Assembly: GCA_031291825.1 (NCBI GenBank)
Contig: JARLIG010000008.1
Coordinates: 5,674-69,673 of the forward strand
Direction: 5' to 3'
From: Minisyncoccota bacterium
GTDB lineage: Bacteria; Patescibacteriota; Minisyncoccia; Phycocordibacterales; UBA9973
Length of the DNA: 64,000 nt
The translations under genes and the position numbers were made by a program. Within the stretch, counting starts at the first letter, position 1. The number at the start of each line of letters is the position of its first letter. Shown piece by piece: positions 748 to 62,621 of this stretch. The notes under the pieces were generated by a model. The model was given only the letters and a program-made list of their open reading frames with translations, was not told where the DNA came from and did no database searches.

Positions 748-847
748 TTTTTTAAAGATAATAATAATAACTCTACACATAATACTACTTTGCTTAATTT
801 TAAGTAAGTAAAAATATACATAAACTGTGGATAACTCCACAGACAAT

Positions 848-893
848 CCCAGACGTTGGACGTCTGGAAGAATACAGACGTCCAACGTCTGGG
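848..893. repeat. Palindromic repeat element: two inverted CCAGACGT-arm hairpin units, intergenic
   Basis: CCCAGACGTTGGACGTCTGG followed 9 nt later by GACGTCCAACGTCTGGG. The same family occurs at 34177-34224, 44772-44819, 54452-54499 and 61520-61537. Confidence 0.8.
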
Positions 894-897
894 AAAT

Positions 898-2893: not shown

Positions 2894-3784
2894 ATGGCAG
2901 AAGAAAATAATTCAACAATAGATGAACAAATAAAAAAGCTGGAGGAAGAAATGGTTAGTCCAGATTTTTGGAGTGACAAAATAAGAGCGCAAAATGTTTT
3001 AAGGGAACTGGCGGAATTGAAAGAAAAAAAAGAAGGCGTGAATAAATACGATAAAGGTAACGCCATCGTCACCATTATTTCCGGTGCGGGCGGAGACGAC
3101 GCCGAAGATTTTTCCAGTATGTTGCTTGCCATGTATATGAAATATGCCACGAAGAGAGGTTGGGGAATTTCTTTTGTGAGTGAACACAAGAACGACCAAG
3201 GCGGATATCGTAATGTTTCTTTTGAAGTCGAAGGGAAAAATGCTTATGGCACCTTAAAAAACGAAGGCGGAGTGCATCGTCTCGTACGCGTTTCACCTTT
3301 CAATGCAAAAAAATTACGGCATACTTCTTTTTCTTTAGTGGAAGTCTTGCCGAAGTTTTCCAAAATGGAAGAGCGCGACGTTGTATTGTCACCGGACGAT
3401 TTAAAAATAGAATTTGCGCGTTCCGGTGGTCCCGGCGGACAAAATGTAAACAAAAGAGAGACAGCTGTTCGCATCGTTCACATTCCGACAAACATTGCCG
3501 TTAGTGTTCGTACGGAACGTTCACAAGAACAAAACAAAGAACAAGCGCTCGCGATTCTTCGCGCAAAAATTTTCAAAAAAGCGGAAGCAGAAAAGAAATC
3601 GGTCGAAGAAAGTATGAAGCTGACTAAAGATACAGAGATTGAATGGGGCAATCAGATACGTTCTTATGTTTTGCATCCATACAAAATGGTCAAAGACCAC
3701 CGCACCGGCGCGGAGACATCAAACGTAGATGAAGTTTTGGATGGCAACTTAGATATTTTCATTGAGGCTGAGAAAAATTTGTGA
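2894..3784 (+). CDS. prfB: Peptide chain release factor 2
   Basis: Contains the SPF tripeptide (RVSPFNAKKLRHTSF) and the GGQ motif (SGGPGGQNVNKRETAVRIVHIPT). At 296 aa the N-terminus is short. There is no upstream frameshift segment, because a tRNA sits immediately 5'. Confidence 0.9.
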   Translation: MAEENNSTIDEQIKKLEEEMVSPDFWSDKIRAQNVLRELAELKEKKEGVNKYDKGNAIVTIISGAGGDDAEDFSSMLLAMYMKYATKRGWGISFVSEHKNDQGGYRNVSFEVEGKNAYGTLKNEGGVHRLVRVSPFNAKKLRHTSFSLVEVLPKFSKMEERDVVLSPDDLKIEFARSGGPGGQNVNKRETAVRIVHIPTNIAVSVRTERSQEQNKEQALAILRAKIFKKAEAEKKSVEESMKLTKDTEIEWGNQIRSYVLHPYKMVKDHRTGAETSNVDEVLDGNLDIFIEAEKNL

Positions 3785-3796
3785 TAAGATGAGTAA

Positions 3797-4465
3797 GTGA
3801 TTTATTTTAATAACGTTTCTAAAATTTATAAAGATGCCACTGCGCTTCTCGATATTACTTTTACGGTTGAGGCAGGGGAATTTGTTTCTATCGTCGGACA
3901 TTCCGGCGCCGGCAAGACGACTCTCACAAAAATGATTTTAGCGGAAGAGAATCCAACGGATGGAACTGTTTTTTTTGAATCAATCAATGTGCATAAACTA
4001 AAAAGCAAAGATTTGACCAAGCTGAGGCGTCGTATTGGCGTCGTTTTTCAGGATTATAAATTGCTCTCAAATAAGACTGCTTATGAAAACATCGCTTTTG
4101 CGATGGAAGCAGTCGGTAAAACAGAAGAAGAAATTGCTTCCGATGTTCCACATGTTTTAGAACTGGTGGATTTGAGTCATCGGGTGAGTCATTTTCCACA
4201 CGAAATGTCTGGTGGAGAACAACAGCGTCTAGCAATTGCACGTGCTATCATCAACCAACCAGAACTGATTATTGCTGATGAGCCGACGGGGAATTTGGAC
4301 CCAGTGAACACGCATGAGATAGTGCAGATTCTAAAAAAAATAAATGATTTGGGTACAACCGTGATTTTAACCACTCATAATCGCGGAGTAATTGATTCGC
4401 TTAACAAGAGAGTCATTACGATGGAGAATGGTAAAATTATTCGAGACACCAAGACTAGCAAGTAA
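3797..4465 (+). CDS. ftsE: Cell-division ABC ATPase FtsE
   Basis: GTG start. Walker A GHSGAGKTT, ABC signature LSGGEQQRLAIARA and Walker B IIADEPTGNLD. It sits immediately upstream of ftsX. Confidence 0.9.
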   Translation: MIYFNNVSKIYKDATALLDITFTVEAGEFVSIVGHSGAGKTTLTKMILAEENPTDGTVFFESINVHKLKSKDLTKLRRRIGVVFQDYKLLSNKTAYENIAFAMEAVGKTEEEIASDVPHVLELVDLSHRVSHFPHEMSGGEQQRLAIARAIINQPELIIADEPTGNLDPVNTHEIVQILKKINDLGTTVILTTHNRGVIDSLNKRVITMENGKIIRDTKTSK

Positions 4466-11954: not shown

Positions 11955-12025
11955 CTGGGAGACTTGGACTCGAACCAAGATAATATCCTCCAGAGGGATA
12001 TGTCCTACCATTAGACGATCTCCCA
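11955..12025 (-). tRNA. tRNA-Gln (anticodon CUG)
   Basis: Minus-strand cloverleaf: acceptor TGGGAGA/TCTCCCA with the U1:A72 pair typical of bacterial tRNA-Gln, anticodon arm TATCC-CTCTGGA-GGATA, T-arm CTTGG-TTCGAGT-CCAAG. CCA is not encoded. Confidence 0.85.
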
Positions 12026-34150: not shown

Positions 34151-34176
34151 TTAATATTATATAGGTGTGGATAAAC

Positions 34177-34224
34177 CTCCAGACGTTGGACGTCTGTAAG
34201 CTTACAGACGTCCAACGTCTGGAG
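34177..34224. repeat. 48-bp perfect palindrome of the CCAGACGT repeat family (intergenic)
   Basis: CTCCAGACGTTGGACGTCTGTAAGCTTACAGACGTCCAACGTCTGGAG is its own reverse complement. Confidence 0.85.
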
Positions 34225-34324: not shown

Positions 34325-34663
34325 ATGGAAAATATGGATAAAAAAGAATGTGGATGCGCAGAAGGTAAGTGTGCTTGTGGTTCTATGGGTCATATGCATG
34401 GTTGTCATGGTGGAATGTATCATCTTCTAAAAGTAGTTTTGAAGATTTTCATCCTAATCATTATCTTTTGGTGTGGATTCCAGCTTGGTCAAGAATCTGG
34501 TTTAATCAAGGCAGAATATGGACGCGCTATGATGATGAGTCAAAGAGGAGGTGCTTCTAATTTTGGAATGATGGGTGGTAATAGTGGTTGGAACAATAAT
34601 ACTTCTGGTGTTATGATTCCAGCAACCAACGCTACTCCTGTAGTGCCAACACCAGCTAAATAA
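34325..34663 (+). CDS. Small Cys/His-rich membrane protein with a Gly/Met-rich tail
   Basis: N-terminus CGCAEGKCACGSMGHMHGCHGGMYH, one TM, then GMMGGNSGWNNN. Confidence 0.45.
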   Translation: MENMDKKECGCAEGKCACGSMGHMHGCHGGMYHLLKVVLKIFILIIIFWCGFQLGQESGLIKAEYGRAMMMSQRGGASNFGMMGGNSGWNNNTSGVMIPATNATPVVPTPAK

Positions 34664-34684
34664 TTTTCAAATTAATATTTGAAT

Positions 34685-34730
34685 AAGATAAAACAAAAAC
34701 CCTCCAATTGGAGGGTTTTTGTTTTATCTT
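34685..34730. terminator. Bidirectional terminator (46-bp perfect palindrome)
   Basis: AAGATAAAACAAAAACCCTCCAATTGGAGGGTTTTTGTTTTATCTT between convergent genes. Confidence 0.75.
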
Positions 34731-34739
34731 ATTAATTAA

Positions 34740-35579
34740 TTAGAAACCGAAGATGTGAGAGAAGAATGAACCAATGGCACCAAAGAATCCCTTTGGTTGT
34801 GGAGTTGTAGCTGTTGTGCTCGTTGATGCTTTTTGATCAATTACGCTTGAGGCGGTAACTGAATTTCCATTTACTGTTCCTTGGACGACGACATTGTCAC
34901 CGACAGCTATATTTGAAATGGTAATGGTTGTTTGTCCTTGGATAATTTTTGCGTTTGTTACATCAACAGTATAGGTCACATTGCTCTTGTTTGTGATAGT
35001 AAGCGTATTACCACTTAAAGAGGTGACTGCTCCAGCAACTACGGGTTGTCCGTTGCCAGTGATTGGTGAAGTCTGGTTTTGACCTGGTTGGCCATTATTA
35101 CTTGCGCCTGGTGTTCTTGCCATAACGCCATCACGAATTGTCGTAGCGACAAGATTGGTTCCGGTTAATGTACCTTGGGCCATAATTGTATCCCCGACAA
35201 CGATGCTAGAGATTGTTCCTGCAGCGTTACTTTTTGTAATCGTTGCATTTGTGGCATCTACTGTGTAAGTGGTGGTTGTAGGAGTGGCACTAGTGGTTGT
35301 TGAACCAGTGGTGTTTGGTCTCATTCCATGGGTACTAGTAATAGTTATGATACTTCCATTTATAGCAGAAACTGTACCGAACACGCTAGGCTTCATCATG
35401 CTCTTCATTCCGCCCATATGACCAGCTCCTCCCCAAGCATGGGGTTGGCCAGCGTACGCGCCATTATTAGGTCCTCCTGTTGGAGTGGTTGTCGTTTGTG
35501 CGAAAGCGGGAACAGCCATAGTTAAAACTGCTAATGCTGCTAAACCTATAAAACTAGAAACATATTTTTTATTTTGCAT
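34740..35579 (-). CDS. Secreted Thr-rich protein with an N-terminal His/Met-rich motif
   Basis: Signal peptide, then GQPHAWGGAGHMGGMKSMMKP, then T/S/G-rich repeats with duplicated VGD.I/V..QGT segments. Confidence 0.5.
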   Translation of the reverse strand: MQNKKYVSSFIGLAALAVLTMAVPAFAQTTTTPTGGPNNGAYAGQPHAWGGAGHMGGMKSMMKPSVFGTVSAINGSIITITSTHGMRPNTTGSTTTSATPTTTTYTVDATNATITKSNAAGTISSIVVGDTIMAQGTLTGTNLVATTIRDGVMARTPGASNNGQPGQNQTSPITGNGQPVVAGAVTSLSGNTLTITNKSNVTYTVDVTNAKIIQGQTTITISNIAVGDNVVVQGTVNGNSVTASSVIDQKASTSTTATTPQPKGFFGAIGSFFSHIFGF

Positions 35580-44644: not shown

Positions 44645-46234
44645 ATGCAAGAAATTAACACCCAAATATTAATTATTGATTTAGGTTCTCAATACACGGA
44701 AATAATCAGACGCAGTTTGCGTTATTTGGGATTTCGCTCAACCATAATTTCTCCGGAGGAACTTTTAGAGGCTCCAGACGTTGGACGTCTGGAAGCTTCC
44801 AGACGTCCAACGTCTGGAGCGGGAGCCAACTTGAAGAGCATTATTTTATCTGGTGGTAGCGCCAGTGTCTATGATGGAGATGCTCCTAAAATTCCAAAAG
44901 AAATATTAGATTTAGGTATTCCAATTTTGGGCATTTGTTATGGAATGCAATGGTTGGCTTATGTCAACAATCCTGACTCTGTGCATAAAGTTAAAGAGGG
45001 TAAATCATATGGTCCTGTTGAAGTGACTTTAAGCAAAAGCAAACTTTTTGAAAATTTAAGCGAAAAGAATAATGGAAAGATAAATGCATGGTCCAGCCAT
45101 GGAGATTCAGTAAAAAAAGTTCCAGCTGACTTTAGTATTATTGCTACTTCCAAAGACGGTGTAGTGATTGAAGGTATGGAGTGTCAGGCGAAAAATATTT
45201 ATGCTGTGCAGTTTCATCCAGAAGTGGAGCAAACCGAAGATGAAAATATTATTTTAAATAATTTTGCTTCAAAAATTTGTAATTGCATTTTAGATTATGA
45301 CAAAAAAAATATCATAGAAGAAATTAGAACAAATACCAAAAAAATATTAGGTAATGGCACGGCAATTATTGGAGTCTCCGGCGGAGTTGATTCTACGACC
45401 TTGGCTGCTATTTTGGCGCCAGCACTAGGTGAGCAATTGAAAGCATTTGTGATTGATACTGGCGGAATGCGCAAAGATGAAGTTGAGAGGGTAAGAGAAA
45501 TCGCTAAAAAAGCAGGTGTAAACCTGGAAGTAATTGATAGGTATAAAAATAAATTTGTGGAAAGTGTGGGGAAGAGCATTGATGCTGAAGAAAAACGTGC
45601 TCACTTTCGAGCAGTTTACGGGGAAGTATTTCAAGAAGTGGCGAAATCCTATGGTGCAACCCATATGATTCAAGGAACTTTGGCGACTGATTTGATTGAA
45701 TCTGGTGGTGCCGGAAAGTCTGCTTTAATTAAGACACATCACAATGTTGACCTTAAACTTGGATTGAAGGAAATAATACCATTGTCTGATTTTTTCAAAT
45801 TTGAAGTGCGAGAACTAGCACGTGAATTTGGATTGGAAGAATTATTAACTAATCGTCAGCCTTTCCCAGGCCCAGGTTTGTATTTGCGAATTGTTGGAGT
45901 AAAAGTCACAGAAGAATTATTGGAGATTGTTCGAGAGGCAGATTATGAAGTGACACAAATTCTAAAAAAACACAATGTTTATAAGGATATTTCTCAAACT
46001 ATTGTGGCGCTCCTCGGAGTAAATACTGTGGGAGTAAAAGGCGATGGCAGAGTCTATGGATATTCTTTGGTGGTGCGTACCGTGGAGACAATTGATTTTA
46101 TGACAGTCAAGGGATTTTACTTAGAGAAAGTTATCTGTGAAGAAATAACTAGCGCGTTGGTCAAGCATCCAAAAATTGTTCGAGTGTTTTTTGATTGGAC
46201 GACCAAACCTCCAGCAACGACTGAATTTGAATAA
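44645..46234 (+). CDS. guaA: GMP synthase (glutamine-hydrolysing), carrying a 16-aa in-frame palindromic-repeat insertion
   Basis: The track ORF starts at 44609, but a terminator overlaps it, so the ATG at 44645 (MQEINTQILIIDLGSQYTE) is preferred. GATase signature GICYGMQ, ATP-PPase P-loop GVSGGVDSTT, and C-terminal KPPATTEFE are present. Confidence 0.95.
   Translation: MQEINTQILIIDLGSQYTEIIRRSLRYLGFRSTIISPEELLEAPDVGRLEASRRPTSGAGANLKSIILSGGSASVYDGDAPKIPKEILDLGIPILGICYGMQWLAYVNNPDSVHKVKEGKSYGPVEVTLSKSKLFENLSEKNNGKINAWSSHGDSVKKVPADFSIIATSKDGVVIEGMECQAKNIYAVQFHPEVEQTEDENIILNNFASKICNCILDYDKKNIIEEIRTNTKKILGNGTAIIGVSGGVDSTTLAAILAPALGEQLKAFVIDTGGMRKDEVERVREIAKKAGVNLEVIDRYKNKFVESVGKSIDAEEKRAHFRAVYGEVFQEVAKSYGATHMIQGTLATDLIESGGAGKSALIKTHHNVDLKLGLKEIIPLSDFFKFEVRELAREFGLEELLTNRQPFPGPGLYLRIVGVKVTEELLEIVREADYEVTQILKKHNVYKDISQTIVALLGVNTVGVKGDGRVYGYSLVVRTVETIDFMTVKGFYLEKVICEEITSALVKHPKIVRVFFDWTTKPPATTEFE
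44772..44819. repeat. 48-bp perfect palindrome (CCAGACGT family) inserted in-frame inside guaA
   Basis: CTCCAGACGTTGGACGTCTGGAAGCTTCCAGACGTCCAACGTCTGGAG translates as (A)PDVGRLEASRRPTSG. Removing exactly these 48 bp gives a contiguous canonical GATase loop. Confidence 0.85.
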
Positions 46235-49394: not shown

Positions 49395-49590
49395 AAATCC
49401 TGCCAGATAGAATCCAGAGCAGAATTTGGGGTCCTTCAAATAAAGAGATAAATGAAGGCAAAGAGACTTTTGTCCTGCTCGGGAATACATGAAACGATTG
49501 GTATTCGGACTTGTCTTCGACCTAGGTCGAAGCTTACCGTAGCGGCACTGTACTGGAATCAAACCAGTTTCCCCAATAGTTTCTTTTCGT
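49395..49590 (-). ncRNA. Candidate cobalamin riboswitch in the leader of the DUF4430 operon
   Basis: The minus strand reads UAUUGGGGAAACUGGUUUGAUUCCAGUACAGUGCCGCUACGGUAAGC...(hairpin)...GAAGACAAGUCCGAAUACCAAUCG. This matches the B12-element core GGGAA-n3-GGUG-nAAnUCC...CnG-nCCCGCCACUGU and the 3' AAGUCAGGAUACC block. An expression-platform hairpin and U8 tract lie at about 49391-49420. Confidence 0.4.
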
Positions 49591-49632
49591 TTTCAAATGA
49601 ACTCACTCTAGTATATACTTACCCTATATCTT

Positions 49633-51394: not shown

Positions 51395-52558
51395 TTAAAT
51401 ATCAGCCTTGCGAATAGTTGAGGCGAGGTAAACTCCAAAAAGCATCATCAACCCCAAGACGGGGAAGATGAAATTAAATTTCGGTAGAAAAATAAAAACC
51501 ATTAAGGCCACAATCGGTCCAGTAATGTAAGCCAAAGGACTTGTGCTACGGTAAATTCCGACAAATTCTTCATTTTCTGGTTTGATGTGTTTAAAAAAAT
51601 ACGAGTCACTCATGACTTCGACAGTTGCGGCGCCGACTCGAGTCAAGAAAAGCAATGCTGCCCATATCCAAATCTCTGGTTTTTGAATAAAGAACAGAGA
51701 AATGGTTGAAATAGAAATAATAAAAAATCCAACCATCAACATTTTTCTTTCACCGACCTTATCTGAATATCTTCCCATTGAAGACTCAATCAACACAAAA
51801 GGTAAGAGCATTATGGTAAAAATTATAGCAATATCTTTCCAAGTGAAACCTAAATAAGAATATAGATATATAGGTGTATAAATAATCATCCAGCAATAGA
51901 AGAACTGCAGAAGAAAATCTATACTATATGAACGTAAAAGATTTTTATTTTTTATAAAATCCTTAACATAACTTAAGATTTTTAATCTGTCGTATTTTGG
52001 GTCTGGAATATTTTTGAGTCCAAATAAAGATAATAGGAAAAATAATATCATTATAAAAAAAGCAATGATATAAATTGTTTTCAAGGGAAAATTTCCAAAA
52101 ACTGTTCCGGATAATAATTGTGCCACGACCCAAGCAAAATTACTTAAAGCAAGATAGATACCTCTAATTCTTCCAGTTGCTGATTCCTTAGAAAATATCT
52201 TTAATAATTCATCCAACGAAAAGAAAACTACGATATTTAAGGCAAAGCCAAGAACAAAAGAACATACAGCAGAAAAAGCATTAGTAGATAATGCCAACCA
52301 CAGTATCGATAGAGTATTAAGTCCAATTACTAACAATAAAAATCTATGCCCTCCAATTTTTCTAAAAACCCTTGGAGCAAACAAAAGCATCAAGATAGAA
52401 ACGAGTGAACCTAAGGTATAAACTAATCCAACAAATCTCTCACCGATAAACGGTGAGAGAAAACTGGAGTTTATATAAGACATCAACGCTATTGGAATTG
52501 ATGCCAAGAAACCCGCAAAGTATATAATTATTCTGTCACGCTTCATATTTTTAAACAC
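51395..52558 (-). CDS. MFS-type transporter
   Basis: 387 aa and 12 TMs. Confidence 0.65.
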   Translation of the reverse strand: MFKNMKRDRIIIYFAGFLASIPIALMSYINSSFLSPFIGERFVGLVYTLGSLVSILMLLFAPRVFRKIGGHRFLLLVIGLNTLSILWLALSTNAFSAVCSFVLGFALNIVVFFSLDELLKIFSKESATGRIRGIYLALSNFAWVVAQLLSGTVFGNFPLKTIYIIAFFIMILFFLLSLFGLKNIPDPKYDRLKILSYVKDFIKNKNLLRSYSIDFLLQFFYCWMIIYTPIYLYSYLGFTWKDIAIIFTIMLLPFVLIESSMGRYSDKVGERKMLMVGFFIISISTISLFFIQKPEIWIWAALLFLTRVGAATVEVMSDSYFFKHIKPENEEFVGIYRSTSPLAYITGPIVALMVFIFLPKFNFIFPVLGLMMLFGVYLASTIRKADI

Positions 52559-54578
52559 TCAAGATTACAGGAATGACTAGAGGTCTCTTGGCAGTTTTTT
52601 GGTATAAGAATTTTGAAATATTTTCTCCCAAGTTGGCTTTAATGTGGTCAAAATCCATATTGTTTTCACCCTGATTTAAGGAAAGGGGAACCTTGGCAGT
52701 CATATCTTCGATTGATTTTTTAATAATGATTCTAACCTGACGCAGAAGTTCTTGATTTTCTTTTAAGTAAACAAATCCTCTGGAAATTAAGTCTGGAGAT
52801 TTTTTGAGCTTTCCAGTTTTTTGGTCAAGCAAAGCAATGATGACAAACATACCATCTTGTGAAAGCATCTGACGGTCTCGGATGACGACATCTTGGGTGT
52901 CAGAGACGGAAGTGCCGTCCACCAACATTGGTCCACTTGGAGCTGTTTCTTTTCTTCTTGTTATTTTTTGTCCATCAGCGGATATTTCAATTATTGAACC
53001 ATTGTCTGGTACGACAATATTTTCTTCTGACATCCCCAGTTCCATTGCTAGCTCTTTGTGTTTTTCCAAAAAAGAATGATTTCCATGAATTGGAATAAAG
53101 AATTTTGGATGAGTCTTGTGGTGAAGCCATTTAATGTCTTCTTGGTTGCCGTGACCAGTCGCGTGAACAAAGTCTTCTCCAGCAGTGCGGTAACTGATAA
53201 TTTTTACACCCTGTCTAGTTAAACCATCTTTCATTTTTTGAACCTTAAGTTCATTACCTGGAATGATGGAGGCAGAAAGAATGATTGTATCACCTTTGTG
53301 GAGTTTAAATTTAGTGTGTGATTTATTGGCTGCGCGATTGAGTGAAGCAAATTCTTCGCCTTGCGCGCCAGTCATTAAGATAATGACTTTATTTGGAGGA
53401 TAATTATCAGCATCTTCAATTGGAATAATCGTGCCCTTTTTTGGGGTGAAAAGTCCAGCTTCAATTGCTACATCGATGTTTGTTTTCATCGAACGTCCAT
53501 CCAAAACTATTTTTTTACCCATGGTCTCTGCAAATTTAACAATATGAGCCAATCTGGTAATATGTGAAGCGAAAGCGGCAATAATCATTCGACCTTGTAC
53601 TTTTTTTATTAAATTCTCAAGTCCTTGGTGGACTTTTATTTCCGGTAGAGAAAAACCTTCATTTTCGATATTAGTGGAATCAGTCATCAAAAGAAGCACT
53701 TTAGCTTTGTCGAAAATTGAATATTCTCTTTCTTCATCTTTGGCGACGACTCCGTCTACTTGGTCTAGCTTATAATCTCCCGGAGTGACAATCCAGCCGT
53801 TGGCGGTTTCGATAATTATTCCCATTGAGTCTGGAATAGTATGGGTGACACCGAAGAATCGGATTTTTATTTTTCCACAAGTTATAACTGAATCTTTTTC
53901 TACAATAACTTCTTTCATGGGTGCTAATTGTGGAAATTCTGCTTGACGTTTTCGCATCATCAAGATAGAAAGATTTCTAGAATAAACTGGTGGGTTTCCA
54001 ATGCGTGAAAGTACCAATGGTACACCACCAATGTGGTCTAAGTGCCCGTGAGTAATCAAAAGCGCACGAATTTTATCTTTGCGTTCTTCTAGATAAGTCG
54101 TATTTGGTATCACATAGTCAACTCCAGGGGTGGCTTCAGTAGAAAAAAGCATACCAGCATCAATAATAACGATGTCGTCATCGATTTCGATAGCAGTCAT
54201 ATTTTTCCCAATTTCTTCTACTCCGCCGAGCGGGATAATACGCACCACGCCTTTTTCTGGTGGGGGAATTTTTGCCATGTTAGCGTTCTTGTATTGATTT
54301 TTTTGAGGAAAAGAGCCAGTGGAAGAACTTGGTCCAAATCTTTTTTTGGTATATTGATATGTAGAACTTTTTAAGTTTCTTTTATTTTGCGTGTTTCTTC
54401 CAGGTGTCCCGTGTTTTTGGATGACAGATGTTCCACGTCTTGATAAATTACCTCCAGACGTTCCACGTCTGGAAGCTTCCAGACGTGGAACGTCTGGAGA
54501 AGCTGAGTTTGTACCTTTGTTTTCCTCCTTAGTGTCCTTTGTTATAGACGAGAAAGAGAGTCTTGTTTTTTTTGTCAT
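52551..54578 (-). CDS. rnj: Ribonuclease J (metallo-beta-lactamase/beta-CASP), with a repeat-containing N-terminal extension
   Basis: HxHxDH motif LITHGHLDHIGGVP and beta-CASP motifs. The track ORF is 675 aa. The canonical RNase J body starts at M101 (MAKIPPPEKGVVRIIPLGGVEEIGKN; ATG at 54276-54278). The preceding 100 aa contain a CCAGACG palindrome copy. Confidence 0.9.
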   Translation of the reverse strand: MTKKTRLSFSSITKDTKEENKGTNSASPDVPRLEASRRGTSGGNLSRRGTSVIQKHGTPGRNTQNKRNLKSSTYQYTKKRFGPSSSTGSFPQKNQYKNANMAKIPPPEKGVVRIIPLGGVEEIGKNMTAIEIDDDIVIIDAGMLFSTEATPGVDYVIPNTTYLEERKDKIRALLITHGHLDHIGGVPLVLSRIGNPPVYSRNLSILMMRKRQAEFPQLAPMKEVIVEKDSVITCGKIKIRFFGVTHTIPDSMGIIIETANGWIVTPGDYKLDQVDGVVAKDEEREYSIFDKAKVLLLMTDSTNIENEGFSLPEIKVHQGLENLIKKVQGRMIIAAFASHITRLAHIVKFAETMGKKIVLDGRSMKTNIDVAIEAGLFTPKKGTIIPIEDADNYPPNKVIILMTGAQGEEFASLNRAANKSHTKFKLHKGDTIILSASIIPGNELKVQKMKDGLTRQGVKIISYRTAGEDFVHATGHGNQEDIKWLHHKTHPKFFIPIHGNHSFLEKHKELAMELGMSEENIVVPDNGSIIEISADGQKITRRKETAPSGPMLVDGTSVSDTQDVVIRDRQMLSQDGMFVIIALLDQKTGKLKKSPDLISRGFVYLKENQELLRQVRIIIKKSIEDMTAKVPLSLNQGENNMDFDHIKANLGENISKFLYQKTAKRPLVIPVILSV
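54428..54499. repeat. CCAGACGT-family palindrome (loop variant TTCCA/TGGAA) plus an upstream half-unit, within the rnj 5' region
   Basis: CTCCAGACGTTCCACGTCTGGAAGCTTCCAGACGTGGAACGTCTGGAG at 54452-54499, preceded by ATGTTCCACGTCTTG at 54429-54443. In the long rnj frame it translates as SPDVPRLEASRRGTSG, the same frame as in guaA. Confidence 0.85.
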
Positions 54579-61034: not shown

Positions 61035-61073
61035 GAGACGTCGGTATCCTGCGAAGCAGGAGCCCGACGTCTG
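61035..61073. repeat. GACGTC-containing 9-bp-stem palindrome with a nested hairpin, in a divergent intergenic region
   Basis: AGACGTCGG tatCCTGCgaaGCAGGag CCGACGTCT. It is related to the CCAGACGT repeat family. Confidence 0.5.
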
Positions 61074-61092: not shown

Positions 61093-61515
61093 GTGCTTAA
61101 AAATAAAATTTACAATTTTTTTGGCAGGCGATATGTCGTCAGACGCAGAGTGATACGCGTTGCAGGGCCAAAGAAAATTCTCGGCCATCTCACGGCAAAA
61201 GATTTTAAGGAAAATAAAAAGGCATCGTATGCGCTCATAACCGAGAGGATTGCATATTTCAATCAATCGGGAGAATTTCCGGTAGGGAAGATATTTATAA
61301 AAAATCAAAAGACCAGATGGGGCAGCTGCTCAGGAAAAAGAAATTTGAGTTTCAATTACAAACTCCTTTTTCTGCCGGAAAATCTAAGAGACTATATTAT
61401 CATTCACGAACTCTGCCATCTAAAGGAAATGAATCATTCCAAAAATTTCTGGTCCCTCGTCGCCCTCCAAGTGCCAAATTACAAATCCCTCCGCAGACAA
61501 ATCAAGCCTTACTAG
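61093..61515 (+). CDS. YgjP-like (DUF45) putative metal-dependent hydrolase / metallopeptidase
   Basis: YIIIHELCHLKEMNHSKNFWSLV matches the family motif HELcHl.e.nHs..FW. Confidence 0.75.
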   Translation: MLKNKIYNFFGRRYVVRRRVIRVAGPKKILGHLTAKDFKENKKASYALITERIAYFNQSGEFPVGKIFIKNQKTRWGSCSGKRNLSFNYKLLFLPENLRDYIIIHELCHLKEMNHSKNFWSLVALQVPNYKSLRRQIKPY

Positions 61516-61519
61516 AATT

Positions 61520-61537
61520 CCAGACGTCCAACGTCTG
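61520..61537. repeat. Single CCAGACGT hairpin unit immediately after a stop codon
   Basis: CCAGACGTCCAACGTCTG begins 5 nt after the TAG of the YgjP-like gene. Confidence 0.7.
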
Positions 61538-61616
61538 TAGGTTTATCCACATTTAGATATTACTATATAGTATATATACAAATATAATGTTTTAAATTCA
61601 TGGTATTATATATTAT

Positions 61617-62621
61617 ATGAATAGGGTATTAGCTAAAAAACAAAGCTTAGGTCAGTTTTTCACAACAAATGATTTTTGGCTCAAAGATCATGTCTTGAAA
61701 TTTATAAAATCTACAAAAGCTGAGATTGCTTTTGACCCTTTTGCTGGTGATGGTGATTTATTAAGAGTAGCAAAAAAAATTGGTTTTAAAAAAATAAAAG
61801 GATTAGATATAGATAAAAATCTGAAGTGGGAATACAATGATAGCCTTTTGAGTATTCCAAAAATAAAAAAATCAATTATCATCACTAATCCACCGTATTT
61901 AACCAACTACAGCGCCAAGAGGAAGGGAGTTTACGAGGATGTTAAGAAATATTTTGATATTTGTAATTATGATGATATATACCAACTAGCCATTGAAAAA
62001 TGTCTAGAGAATGAATTTGGAGTAATGATTATTCCAGAAACTTTTATAAATTCAAAATTTCCAAAACATCGCTTAGTAAGTATTACAATAATTGAAGAGC
62101 AACTATTTAATGACACAGAAAATCCTGTTTGTGTCATATGTTTCAATGGCGAAGAGAAAAATTACGAAGATGTAAAAGTTTACAAAAATGAGAAATTTCT
62201 TGGAAGCCTGGGTTTTTTTGAAAAAATGAGAAAGATACCAAGCAAGAATACTTACGTAAAATTTAATTCTCTAAAAGGACAAATTGCCTTAAGAGCAGTA
62301 GATACAACAAATCCCCAAAGACCTATTTCTTTTATGAAACCAGAAGAAATGGACTATGATCTGACAACTATTAAACATAGTTCAAGATTGATTACACTAA
62401 TTGAATTAAATGCCACAAAAGATACAATAGATAAAATAATTATTTATAGCAATAAAGCACTTTTTGATTTTAGAAAAAAGACATCAGATGTTTTACTGTC
62501 TCCGTTTAAGGGGAATAAGAAAAATGGTGAAAGGAGAAGGAGGCTTGATTATTTGACAGCAAGAGCAATCTTAGAAGAAGCACATGATTTTACTCAAACA
62601 GGTAAATTATTTCCTTTGTAA
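61617..62621 (+). CDS. Type II N6-adenine DNA methyltransferase (gamma-class amino-methyltransferase)
   Basis: Motif X-like LGQFFTT, motif I DPFAGDGDLL, and motif IV ITNPPY. Confidence 0.8.
   Translation: MNRVLAKKQSLGQFFTTNDFWLKDHVLKFIKSTKAEIAFDPFAGDGDLLRVAKKIGFKKIKGLDIDKNLKWEYNDSLLSIPKIKKSIIITNPPYLTNYSAKRKGVYEDVKKYFDICNYDDIYQLAIEKCLENEFGVMIIPETFINSKFPKHRLVSITIIEEQLFNDTENPVCVICFNGEEKNYEDVKVYKNEKFLGSLGFFEKMRKIPSKNTYVKFNSLKGQIALRAVDTTNPQRPISFMKPEEMDYDLTTIKHSSRLITLIELNATKDTIDKIIIYSNKALFDFRKKTSDVLLSPFKGNKKNGERRRRLDYLTARAILEEAHDFTQTGKLFPL

Follow-up and report, generated by a model that had tools for sequence, protein, structure and literature searches.

In Proteobacteria such as E. coli and Pseudomonas, repetitive extragenic palindromic (REP) sequences are short GC-rich hairpin units, which also form inverted doublets (REPINs) that fold into a long hairpin and lie mostly in extragenic DNA near the 3' ends of open reading frames (ORFs). 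The REP-associated tyrosine transposase (RAYT) of these systems is an HUH/Tyr enzyme whose gene is single-copy, syntenic and flanked by units, and the unit variants are specific to each genome (Nunvar 2010, PMC2817692; Bertels et al. 2017, PMC5581495). Intragenic REPs have been described in Opitutus terrae (GTAG REPs), R. conorii and others, where they are read through in unrelated proteins, dimers or grouped REPs encoding 20 to 30 amino acids; RPE-4 and RPE-6, two Rickettsia palindromic elements (RPEs) of R. conorii, were reclassified as CGTC REPs (Di Nocera et al. 2013, PMC3733652). Here we describe a 48-bp palindrome, CTCCAGACGTTGGACGTCTGGAAGCTTCCAGACGTCCAACGTCTGGAG, at positions 44772-44819 of a 64,000-nt stretch of DNA, the whole of which is referred to as the window, where it lies in frame inside guaA, the gene for GMP synthase. 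We consider it, with a probability of about 80%, to be a REPIN of a Paceibacteria/Nomurabacteria family from the Candidate Phyla Radiation (CPR), tied to a probably single-copy RAYT of the HUH/Y1 type that is related to IS200/IS605.

Two further kinds of element invite comparison. Mitochondrial GC-cluster/double-hairpin elements and the ribosome-bypassed 'byp' inserts of yeast are small GC-rich hairpins in AT-rich compact genomes. The hairpins studied here are likewise small, GC-rich and able to land in coding sequence, but unlike 'byp' inserts their ORF copies keep the frame and avoid stops, and the genetic system is a different one. RPE-1 (Ogata et al. 2000) is about 100-150 bp long, is specific to Rickettsia and has no known transposase. 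The guaA palindrome resembles RPE-1 as a stop-free palindromic repeat that occurs in frame in conserved genes, falls in surface regions and is missing from orthologues; it differs in host (Paceibacterota), in length (22-nt units) and in its association with a RAYT, and the two are not expected to be related in sequence. The element is therefore RPE-like in behavior, but it is a doublet of 22-nt REP units and not a member of the RPE family.

The 48-mer equals its own reverse complement, and one further base on each side (44771-44820) also belongs to the palindrome, giving two 25-nt arms that are 100% complementary. The left unit covers approximately 44772-44795 and the right unit approximately 44796-44819, around the center AAGCTT at 44793-44798. 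As RNA, the doublet forms a perfect 23-bp stem with a folding energy of -48.9 kcal/mol (z -10.4); the corresponding energy for DNA is -31 kcal/mol, and a lone unit forms a 9-bp hairpin. The 48-mer with up to three mismatches was found twice across the window, against 0.00 matches expected, and its 19-nt half unit nine times, against 0.01 expected. None of its three reading frames contains a stop codon, and since the sequence is a palindrome, it is free of stops in all six.

The host ORF matches the Pfam GATase domain (residues 9-209), GMP_synt_C and a PP-loop region, as well as GuaA structures in the PDB (E down to 3e-89), and its product is 100% identical to NCBI MDR3519529.1 from a metagenome-assembled genome (MAG) of Candidatus Paceibacterota. 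The doublet occupies codons 43-59, translated (A)PDVGRLEASRRPTSG(A), and is positioned in the β2-β3 connection (a short helix/loop) of the GATase domain. Removal of the 48 bp yields ...PEELLEAGANLKSIILSGG, and the PDB homologues have a gap at precisely the insert, about 11-15 residues in length. The GICYGMQ and FHPE regions, which we take to be the catalytic motifs of class I amidotransferases, are conserved in the GuaA alignment. In the AlphaFold2 (AF2) model of the window protein, residues 46-60, between a short helix (37-42) and a strand (65-70), have a predicted local distance difference test (pLDDT) score below 50, while the remainder is confidently folded. The insert is probably read through as a harmless 16-residue surface loop, predicted to be disordered. 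The sequence-only reading, made from the letters of the window, had described a perfect 48-bp palindrome of two units around AAGCTT inside the glutamine-amidotransferase domain of GuaA, read in frame as (A)PDVGRLEASRRPTSG, whose deletion restores the canonical segment. All of this was borne out, and the loop that it proposed to model on a GuaA structure is the low-confidence segment described above.

The same site was followed in relatives; in what follows, L0xx denotes retrieved loci and P0xxx retrieved proteins, with L005, L027, L028, L029 and L039 retrieved by the hairpin sequence alone, and L061 and L062 via the transposase protein. About 110 of 120 related GuaA proteins have lengths of 509-516 aa and the canonical PPEKSLEWIKENKPKG-IILSGG segment; the 16 residues are not an ancestral GuaA loop, the outcome that would have told against the earlier proposal. 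The insert of about 16 residues is missing from P0008 and P0009 (81-84% identity) and from over 100 further GuaA proteins. In the closest GuaA clade (82-85% identity), variant inserts were seen at the DNA level at the same place. In L053, the insert CCCAGGTGTCGGACACCTGGAAGCTTCCAGGTGTCCGACACCTGGG is again a perfect palindrome; five transitions per arm set it apart from the window copy, and each has its compensating change in the unit hairpin as well as in the opposite arm. L054 carries a 41-nt doublet with consensus arms, L055 a long-hairpin variant, L057 a single unit and L058 a decayed copy; L056 and L059 have no insert, and L059 retains the canonical helix. P0241, a GuaA at least 90% identical to that of the window, has a differently built insert (SDVGHPLLRVSDVSSEDPRRPTSV), and the more distant P0018, P0020 and P0084 bear related inserts a few residues away.

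Between the window and L054, the guaA genes are 76% identical and their third codon positions only 50%, yet the two 17-nt REP cores match at 34 of 34 positions. The varied inserts in relatives, together with these identical cores, indicate that the guaA site turns over fast while the hairpin keeps its sequence and symmetry. On these data, it is undecided whether this upkeep reflects selection at the nucleotide level, conversion from arm to arm or copy to copy, or repeated insertion. Comparison with the empty and filled orthologues revealed no target-site duplication at the guaA copy, and no terminal inverted repeats were visible there beyond the hairpin itself. The element consists of hairpins only, and lacks the terminal inverted repeats of a parent insertion sequence and the target-site duplication that mark a classical MITE (miniature inverted-repeat transposable element). 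Within L055, a second, diverged palindrome (CAACTTGGACATCCGATGTCCAAGTTG, 3551-3577) lies in the guaA gene that already carries a REPIN.

The REP unit of about 22 nt has the form CTCCAGACGT-TGG-ACGTCTGGAG, and a doublet comprises two inverted units around a short variable center. The window contains four doublets and one or two single units, compared with approximately zero expected (Table 1). Two of the doublets fall between genes, a third is the guaA copy, and the fourth occupies the N-terminus of RNase J, where it is read in the guaA frame; the three intergenic copies, single unit included, begin 3, 27 and 5 nt after stop codons. In a GTDB scan with one genome per species, the doublet appeared in only one other genome, a Nomurabacteria MAG distinct from the genome of the window, with six full doublets. 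Groundwater, peat and other metagenome samples yielded 47 loci with the 20-mer CTCCAGACGTTGGACGTCTG. Across the window and L001-L052 we located 90 sites, comprising 41 inverted head-to-head doublets with centers of 5-13 nt, 40 single hairpins with stems of 10-12 bp, and six doublets in the opposite arrangement; the doublets are 41-53 nt long, and arms of 24-25 nt with 100% complementarity were measured in the window. Approximately 70 of the 90 sites (about 80%) lie outside any long ORF, typically just 3' of stop codons. At the intergenic site orthologous to 34177-34224 (flank 76% identical), L024 has a single unit (862-879) adjoining the DnaA-box-like flank, in place of the full doublet of the window, which suggests that doublets arise in place from singlets or revert to them. 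The possibility that the palindrome is an artefact of assembly or amplification, for example a chimeric inverted duplication, had to be considered, as multiple displacement amplification or assembly errors can yield perfect palindromes. This reading is effectively refuted by the presence of the element in independent NCBI, ENA, JGI and Logan assemblies, including the orthologous guaA and RNase J sites, and it also fails to account for the element at several sites of the window.

Copies in frame were identified in further genes. The RNase J copy is shared by three related genomes, in which the arms read TTCCA/TGGAA (window), TTGGA/TCCAA (L021) and TCGTA/TACGA (L058) and are matched within each genome. 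Additionally, Pfam-confirmed hosts include ATP synthase gamma (atpG; SPDVGRLPSRRPTSGG), a class-V aminotransferase (Aminotran_5)/cysteine desulfurase (LQTLDVWEKFPDVQRLD, in another frame), MnmA, where the copy lies between the PRC-barrel and the C-terminal barrel, and a DUF4147/MOFRL glycerate-kinase-like enzyme, where it lies between the two domains. The frame used in guaA recurs in RNase J, atpG and a small Ada-like protein, whereas the cysteine desulfurase and MnmA copies use other frames. As in the intragenic REPs already described, units or dimers are read through and tolerated in known protein genes, the doublet here encoding 16 residues; the present family differs from those REPs in sequence and phylum, in being RAYT-linked where CGTC repeats and RPEs have no associated transposase, and in that orthologous intragenic copies can be traced across relatives with their symmetry kept (PMC3733652). 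A second diverged palindrome, CCCAGAAGACGGTCTTCGG...CCGAAGACCGTCTTCTGGGG, read ...GENPRRPSSG..., was observed at 1805-1853 of L036, in an atpG gene already carrying a REPIN.

No checkable ORF copy has a stop in the frame used, and most have none in any of the six (the automatic stop table mislabels two sites where a third unit adjoins). The arms are intrinsically free of stops, and the ORF copies have the center GAAGCTTC or other stop-free centers. In contrast, most intergenic doublets have the center TAAGCTTA or TAATTTA, which puts TAA into the frame commonest inside ORFs, and of the 47 intergenic doublets, just 8 have no stop in any of the six frames. The commonest ORF frame encodes a hydrophilic peptide rich in Pro, Gly, Ser and Arg. 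This pattern fits translation through the element combined with a survival filter. Translational bypass or excision was judged unlikely, because the frame is preserved in all ORF copies and the TAA of most intergenic copies is missing from them. The sequence-only reading had proposed a multi-copy, stop-free palindromic repeat placed in frame, and had named absence from the rest of the genome as a point that would count against it; the additional window copies and the other in-frame genes agree with the proposal, and the freedom from stops applies to all frames of the guaA 48-mer, although in the family at large it belongs to the arms and most intergenic centers carry TAA. It had also seen in the element the hallmark of RPEs. 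The behavior stands, with in-frame, stop-free insertions missing from orthologues in six genes, while RPE membership does not, as the element is a REP doublet that is about 80% intergenic and RAYT-flanked.

The shared frame of guaA, RNase J, atpG and the small Ada-like protein might instead indicate that the peptide PDVGRLEASRRPTSG is a selected protein module, such as an interaction or targeting motif, to which the palindrome is secondary. We regard this as extremely unlikely: most copies are non-coding, the cysteine desulfurase and MnmA copies are read in other frames, and the symmetry of the DNA is conserved while residues swap (G/P in guaA, P/G in RNase J). Furthermore, AF2 gives a low-confidence loop, and filtering for hydrophilic, flexible peptides would be expected to leave just such a frame bias. 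A search of the three frame translations against a collection of 5.8 billion proteins produced no scoring match and was uninformative.

A homologous ORF of about 235 aa is present in both of the unit-rich loci L005 and L039; tblastn also detected it in L027, L028 and L029, with a fragment in L002. Five transposase genes (about 220 aa) were thereby found in 276 kb retrieved by the hairpin alone, all five with units 15-150 nt from the gene ends. With the loci retrieved via the protein included, REP units lie 1-150 nt from the transposase gene in L005, L027, L028, L029, L039, L061 and L062. The gene is flanked on both sides by TAGACGTCCAACGTCTA in L061 and by TAGGGGTTGGACCGCTA and GTAGCGGTCCAACCCCTA in L062. 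In these RAYT-flanking units the loop GTTGGAC/GTCCAAC is conserved and the stems covary by genome (CAGACGT, TAGACGT, TAGGGGT). A second stem variant, TAGGGGT-TGG-ACCCCTA, occurs in L061 as a doublet and a single unit (2787-2823, 4267-4289) beside TAGACGT-type units, so two REP subfamilies are present in one genome.

The transposase scores 29.6 bits against Pfam Y1_Tnp (IS200-like; cut-off 23), and its sole NCBIfam match, REP_Tyr_transpos ('REP-associated tyrosine transposase'), has an E of 2e-6 and falls short of the equivalog cut-off. Invariant features are two tyrosines and the motifs YYHxYNRG, HFH (the HUH motif) and LFQGxFKS. The family has about 2800 members, some of which are labeled 'REP element-mobilizing transposase RayT' or 'REP-associated tyrosine transposase [Patescibacteria group bacterium]' in the source databases. 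The AF2 model (pLDDT 85.8) has as its best Foldseek match in the PDB the E. coli RAYT bound to a REP hairpin (4er8, chain 4er8_A; E 2e-6), followed by the IS608 and ISDra2 transposases; a sequence search of the PDB returned nothing, so that the match came from the fold search only. The RAYT gene, a 215-aa protein, a giant Ig-like protein and L10/L12 form a conserved neighborhood in L061, L062 and L063 and partly in L005 and L039, as would suit a domesticated, single-copy gene of the sort reported for RAYTs (PMC5581495). The protein of about 215 aa beside or near the RAYT gene (L005 163-696, L039 935-1573, L061 10911-11558, L062 4815-5462) has the motif NLPPDPG...NGIRDDVE and no Pfam match; it adjoins the giant Ig-like surface protein, near L10/L12.

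These features correspond to those of the proteobacterial REP/REPIN-RAYT systems: a repeated short GC-rich palindromic unit, inverted doublets forming a long hairpin, a mostly extragenic location near ORF 3' ends, genome-specific unit variants, and an HUH/Y1 enzyme that is closest in fold to the E. coli RAYT, is flanked by units in related genomes and is probably single-copy and syntenic. The differences lie in the streamlined CPR host and low copy number, in the enzyme, which is about 220 aa long, has an additional helical region at its C-terminus and gives weak profile scores, in the lack of an evident unpaired GTAG tag, in a one-sided TGTGGATAA(A/C)C flank at about 40% of sites, and in the several copies placed in frame inside essential genes. 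Alternatively, the palindrome could belong to a true RPE-type or other MITE family, moved by a classical transposase or by none, with the proximity of the RAYT a coincidence. An in-frame, stop-free insertion missing from orthologues is the RPE hallmark, and tblastn detected no RAYT within the window. This alternative is nevertheless very unlikely, given that the units measure 22 nt and the doublets 41-53 nt rather than 100-150 bp, that the host belongs to Paceibacterota, and that the guaA copy has neither terminal inverted repeats beyond the hairpin nor a target-site duplication. The five RAYT genes within 150 nt of units in DNA retrieved by the hairpin alone, and the hairpins in loci retrieved via the RAYT protein, speak against coincidence.

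Several points weigh against assigning the palindrome to a REPIN-RAYT system. No RAYT homologue was found by tblastn within the 64-kb window, and the profile scores of the transposase are weak (26-30 bits in Pfam and NCBIfam), which makes it a distant RAYT relative. The copy density is low, with about five copies per 64 kb here and six full doublets in the Nomurabacteria genome, whereas classical REPIN populations are denser. An unpaired terminal GTAG or CGTC tag is not evident in the window family: the conserved CTC before CAGACGT pairs with GAG and is therefore stem, and in the L062 variant, which starts GTAGCGG, the TAG lies within the stem. Compensatory changes in the long hairpin and the unit hairpins favor the assignment: in 21 distinct doublets, both sides differ in 16 of the 20 pairs of the long hairpin and in 8 of the 14 pairs of the unit hairpin. 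These doublets were chosen for near-palindromy, which inflates their percentage paired and keeps it from being independent evidence, and some of the two-sided changes reflect flipped unit order. Finally, transposition by this RAYT is proposed solely by analogy with the E. coli and Pseudomonas systems (PMC2817692, PMC5581495, 4er8).

By this analogy, the RAYT would bind the hairpin in single-stranded DNA, cut and rejoin it, and so copy units or doublets to new sites. Most of the surviving copies stand just downstream of stop codons, and copies within genes would normally be lost. Survival within a gene would require a kept frame, a stop-free center and a hydrophilic Pro/Gly/Ser/Arg-rich peptide in a tolerant loop or linker, and the intragenic copies may accordingly represent survivors of selection. 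The guaA doublet, in the β2-β3 helix/loop, would then be translated as a 16-residue loop in an otherwise intact enzyme. Signs bearing indirectly on mobility are the filled and empty guaA sites, the differently built inserts in close relatives, and the singlet and doublet at an orthologous intergenic site.

The sole asymmetric feature of the units is the DnaA-box-like TGTGGATAA(A/C)C motif, which stands on one side only, at a fixed 5 nt from the hairpin core, at about 40% of REP sites (for example window 826-834, 34166-34174 and 61543-61551; L050 1160-1175; L034 857-871). The window holds six exact copies of TTATCCACA, against 0.6 expected, three of which adjoin REPs, and in L061 and L062 similar motifs (TTGTCCACA and TTTTCCACA) stand between the REPs and the start of the RAYT gene. 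The flank could serve as a target site, belong to the mobile unit, or be a site for DnaA or a promoter.

This fixed flank is one of several observations that would also suit hairpins selected by the host as functional structures, acting as RNA stabilizers or terminators, as RNase III or ribosome-pausing sites, or as protein-binding DNA through the DnaA-box-like motif. Intergenic copies 3-27 nt after stop codons, the very stable 23-bp stem, the symmetry kept through compensated transitions (five per arm in L053 guaA; RNase J arms TTCCA, TTGGA and TCGTA) and the 34/34 identity of the window and L054 cores in genes that are 76% identical (50% at third positions) all accord with such a role. The same sequence, however, occurs in unrelated contexts and reading frames, the hairpins have no T-run after them, and the association with a transposase explains their spread without a local role. 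Moreover, the differently built insert of P0241, in a GuaA at least 90% identical, and the decayed or missing copies of other relatives indicate turnover rather than a fixed function. Host selection is unlikely as the explanation of the element, although it is compatible with a REPIN origin, each copy being kept for its local role. A narrower proposal, which we put forward tentatively and with the odds against it, is that intragenic REPINs are actively kept consensus-like and palindromic in essential genes, either through re-copying or conversion by the RAYT or through host use of 23-bp hairpins in guaA and rnj mRNAs, and of hairpins next to DnaA-box-like sites, as regulatory or processing signals.

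Other identities were considered and rejected. A terminator as the sole explanation conflicts with the missing T-run and with the copies within ORFs. Over the window, Rfam at gathering thresholds reported only tRNAs and a cobalamin riboswitch, and a permissive scan of an intergenic copy gave only sub-threshold matches to miRNA-precursor hairpins; no described RNA family therefore fits the hairpin. A DNA-uptake sequence was dismissed, since copies are far too sparse and the element is long. A phage-borne element was rejected on a search of 2.9 million viral contigs, in which the exact 18-mer matched once, judged no more than chance.

Table 1. Positions of the REP family, its flank and its host genes in the window (a dot marks features without a strand).
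Feature	Position	Strand	Remarks
REPIN (REP doublet), intergenic, imperfect center GAAGAATA	847..894	.	3 nt after stop of minus-strand ORF 898-2592
DnaA-box-like TGTGGATAA flank of the 34177-34224 REPIN	34166..34174	-	Recurrent one-sided flank
REPIN, intergenic, perfect palindrome, center TAAGCTTA	34177..34224	.	27 nt after stop of MliC-like gene
guaA (GMP synthase, 529 aa), host gene	44645..46234	+	Pfam and PDB matches; intact
REPIN (REP doublet) in guaA	44772..44819	.	Perfect palindrome; RNA and DNA folding
RNase J gene, second in-frame host	52551..54578	-	Pfam RNase_J_b_CASP, RNase_J_C, Lactamase_B
Degenerate third REP unit by the RNase J REPIN, read ...SRRGTS...	54425..54443	.
REPIN in RNase J N-terminal extension, read SPDVPRLEASRRGTSG	54452..54499	minus-strand reading	Loops TCC/GGA, not TGG/CCA
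Single REP unit, followed by GGTTTATCCACA	61520..61538	.	5 nt after stop of YgjP-like ORF

Around the single unit of the window, a nested hairpin, AGACGTCGG-TATCCTGCGAAGCAGGAGC-CCGACGTCT (61036-61072), stands just upstream of the YgjP-like metallopeptidase ORF (61093-61515), and the 15-mer CAGGAGCCCGACGTC recurs beside a REP in L031 (2614-2628). The YgjP-like ORF matches only the C-terminal half of the Pfam profile (positions 113-205 of 207) and may therefore be a truncated gene. Flanked by hairpins, it was considered as a transposase and rejected as a truncated M48-type metallopeptidase. Directly downstream of the single unit, ORF 61617-62621 has an Eco57I-type restriction-modification methylase domain. 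An inverted repeat with 35-nt arms, no spacer and 89% complementarity (34673-34742, around AAAACCCTCCAA/TTGGAGGGTTTT) lies between ORFs 34325-34663 (+) and 34740-35579 (-); it probably acts as a bidirectional terminator and has no relation to the REP family. The window also includes a cobalamin riboswitch on the minus strand (49479-49621; Rfam RF00174, 40 bits, gathering score 31.5) and tRNAs at 2670-2742, 2810-2880 and 11955-12025.

The element is not a new kind, as intragenic REPs and RAYTs are both established. The earlier suggestion that it was uncharacterized in CPR-type genomes holds for the lineage, for which a literature search found no paper linking RAYT or REPIN with CPR/Patescibacteria; it does not extend to the kind of element, because intragenic REPs have been described (PMC3733652) and RAYT genes of Patescibacteria are annotated automatically. 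REP/REPIN-RAYT systems are thereby extended to the CPR, among the most gene-poor bacteria, in which a retained transposase and its hairpins need explanation. For annotation, the 16-residue 'PDVGRLE...SRRPTSG' loops in CPR housekeeping proteins should be read as repeat-encoded, and not as lineage-specific functional motifs. The one-sided flank is worth following, as is the perfect symmetry and consensus that intragenic copies keep though synonymous sites are near saturation. At a single intragenic site, the relatives of the window provide a natural series of consensus, compensated variant, single unit, decayed and empty states, which could test whether REPINs are maintained by selection, conversion or re-insertion. 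If intragenic copies are indeed actively kept, they would constitute a functional or actively maintained REPIN population in coding sequence, and would argue that the RAYT is retained in streamlined CPR genomes for the benefit of the host.

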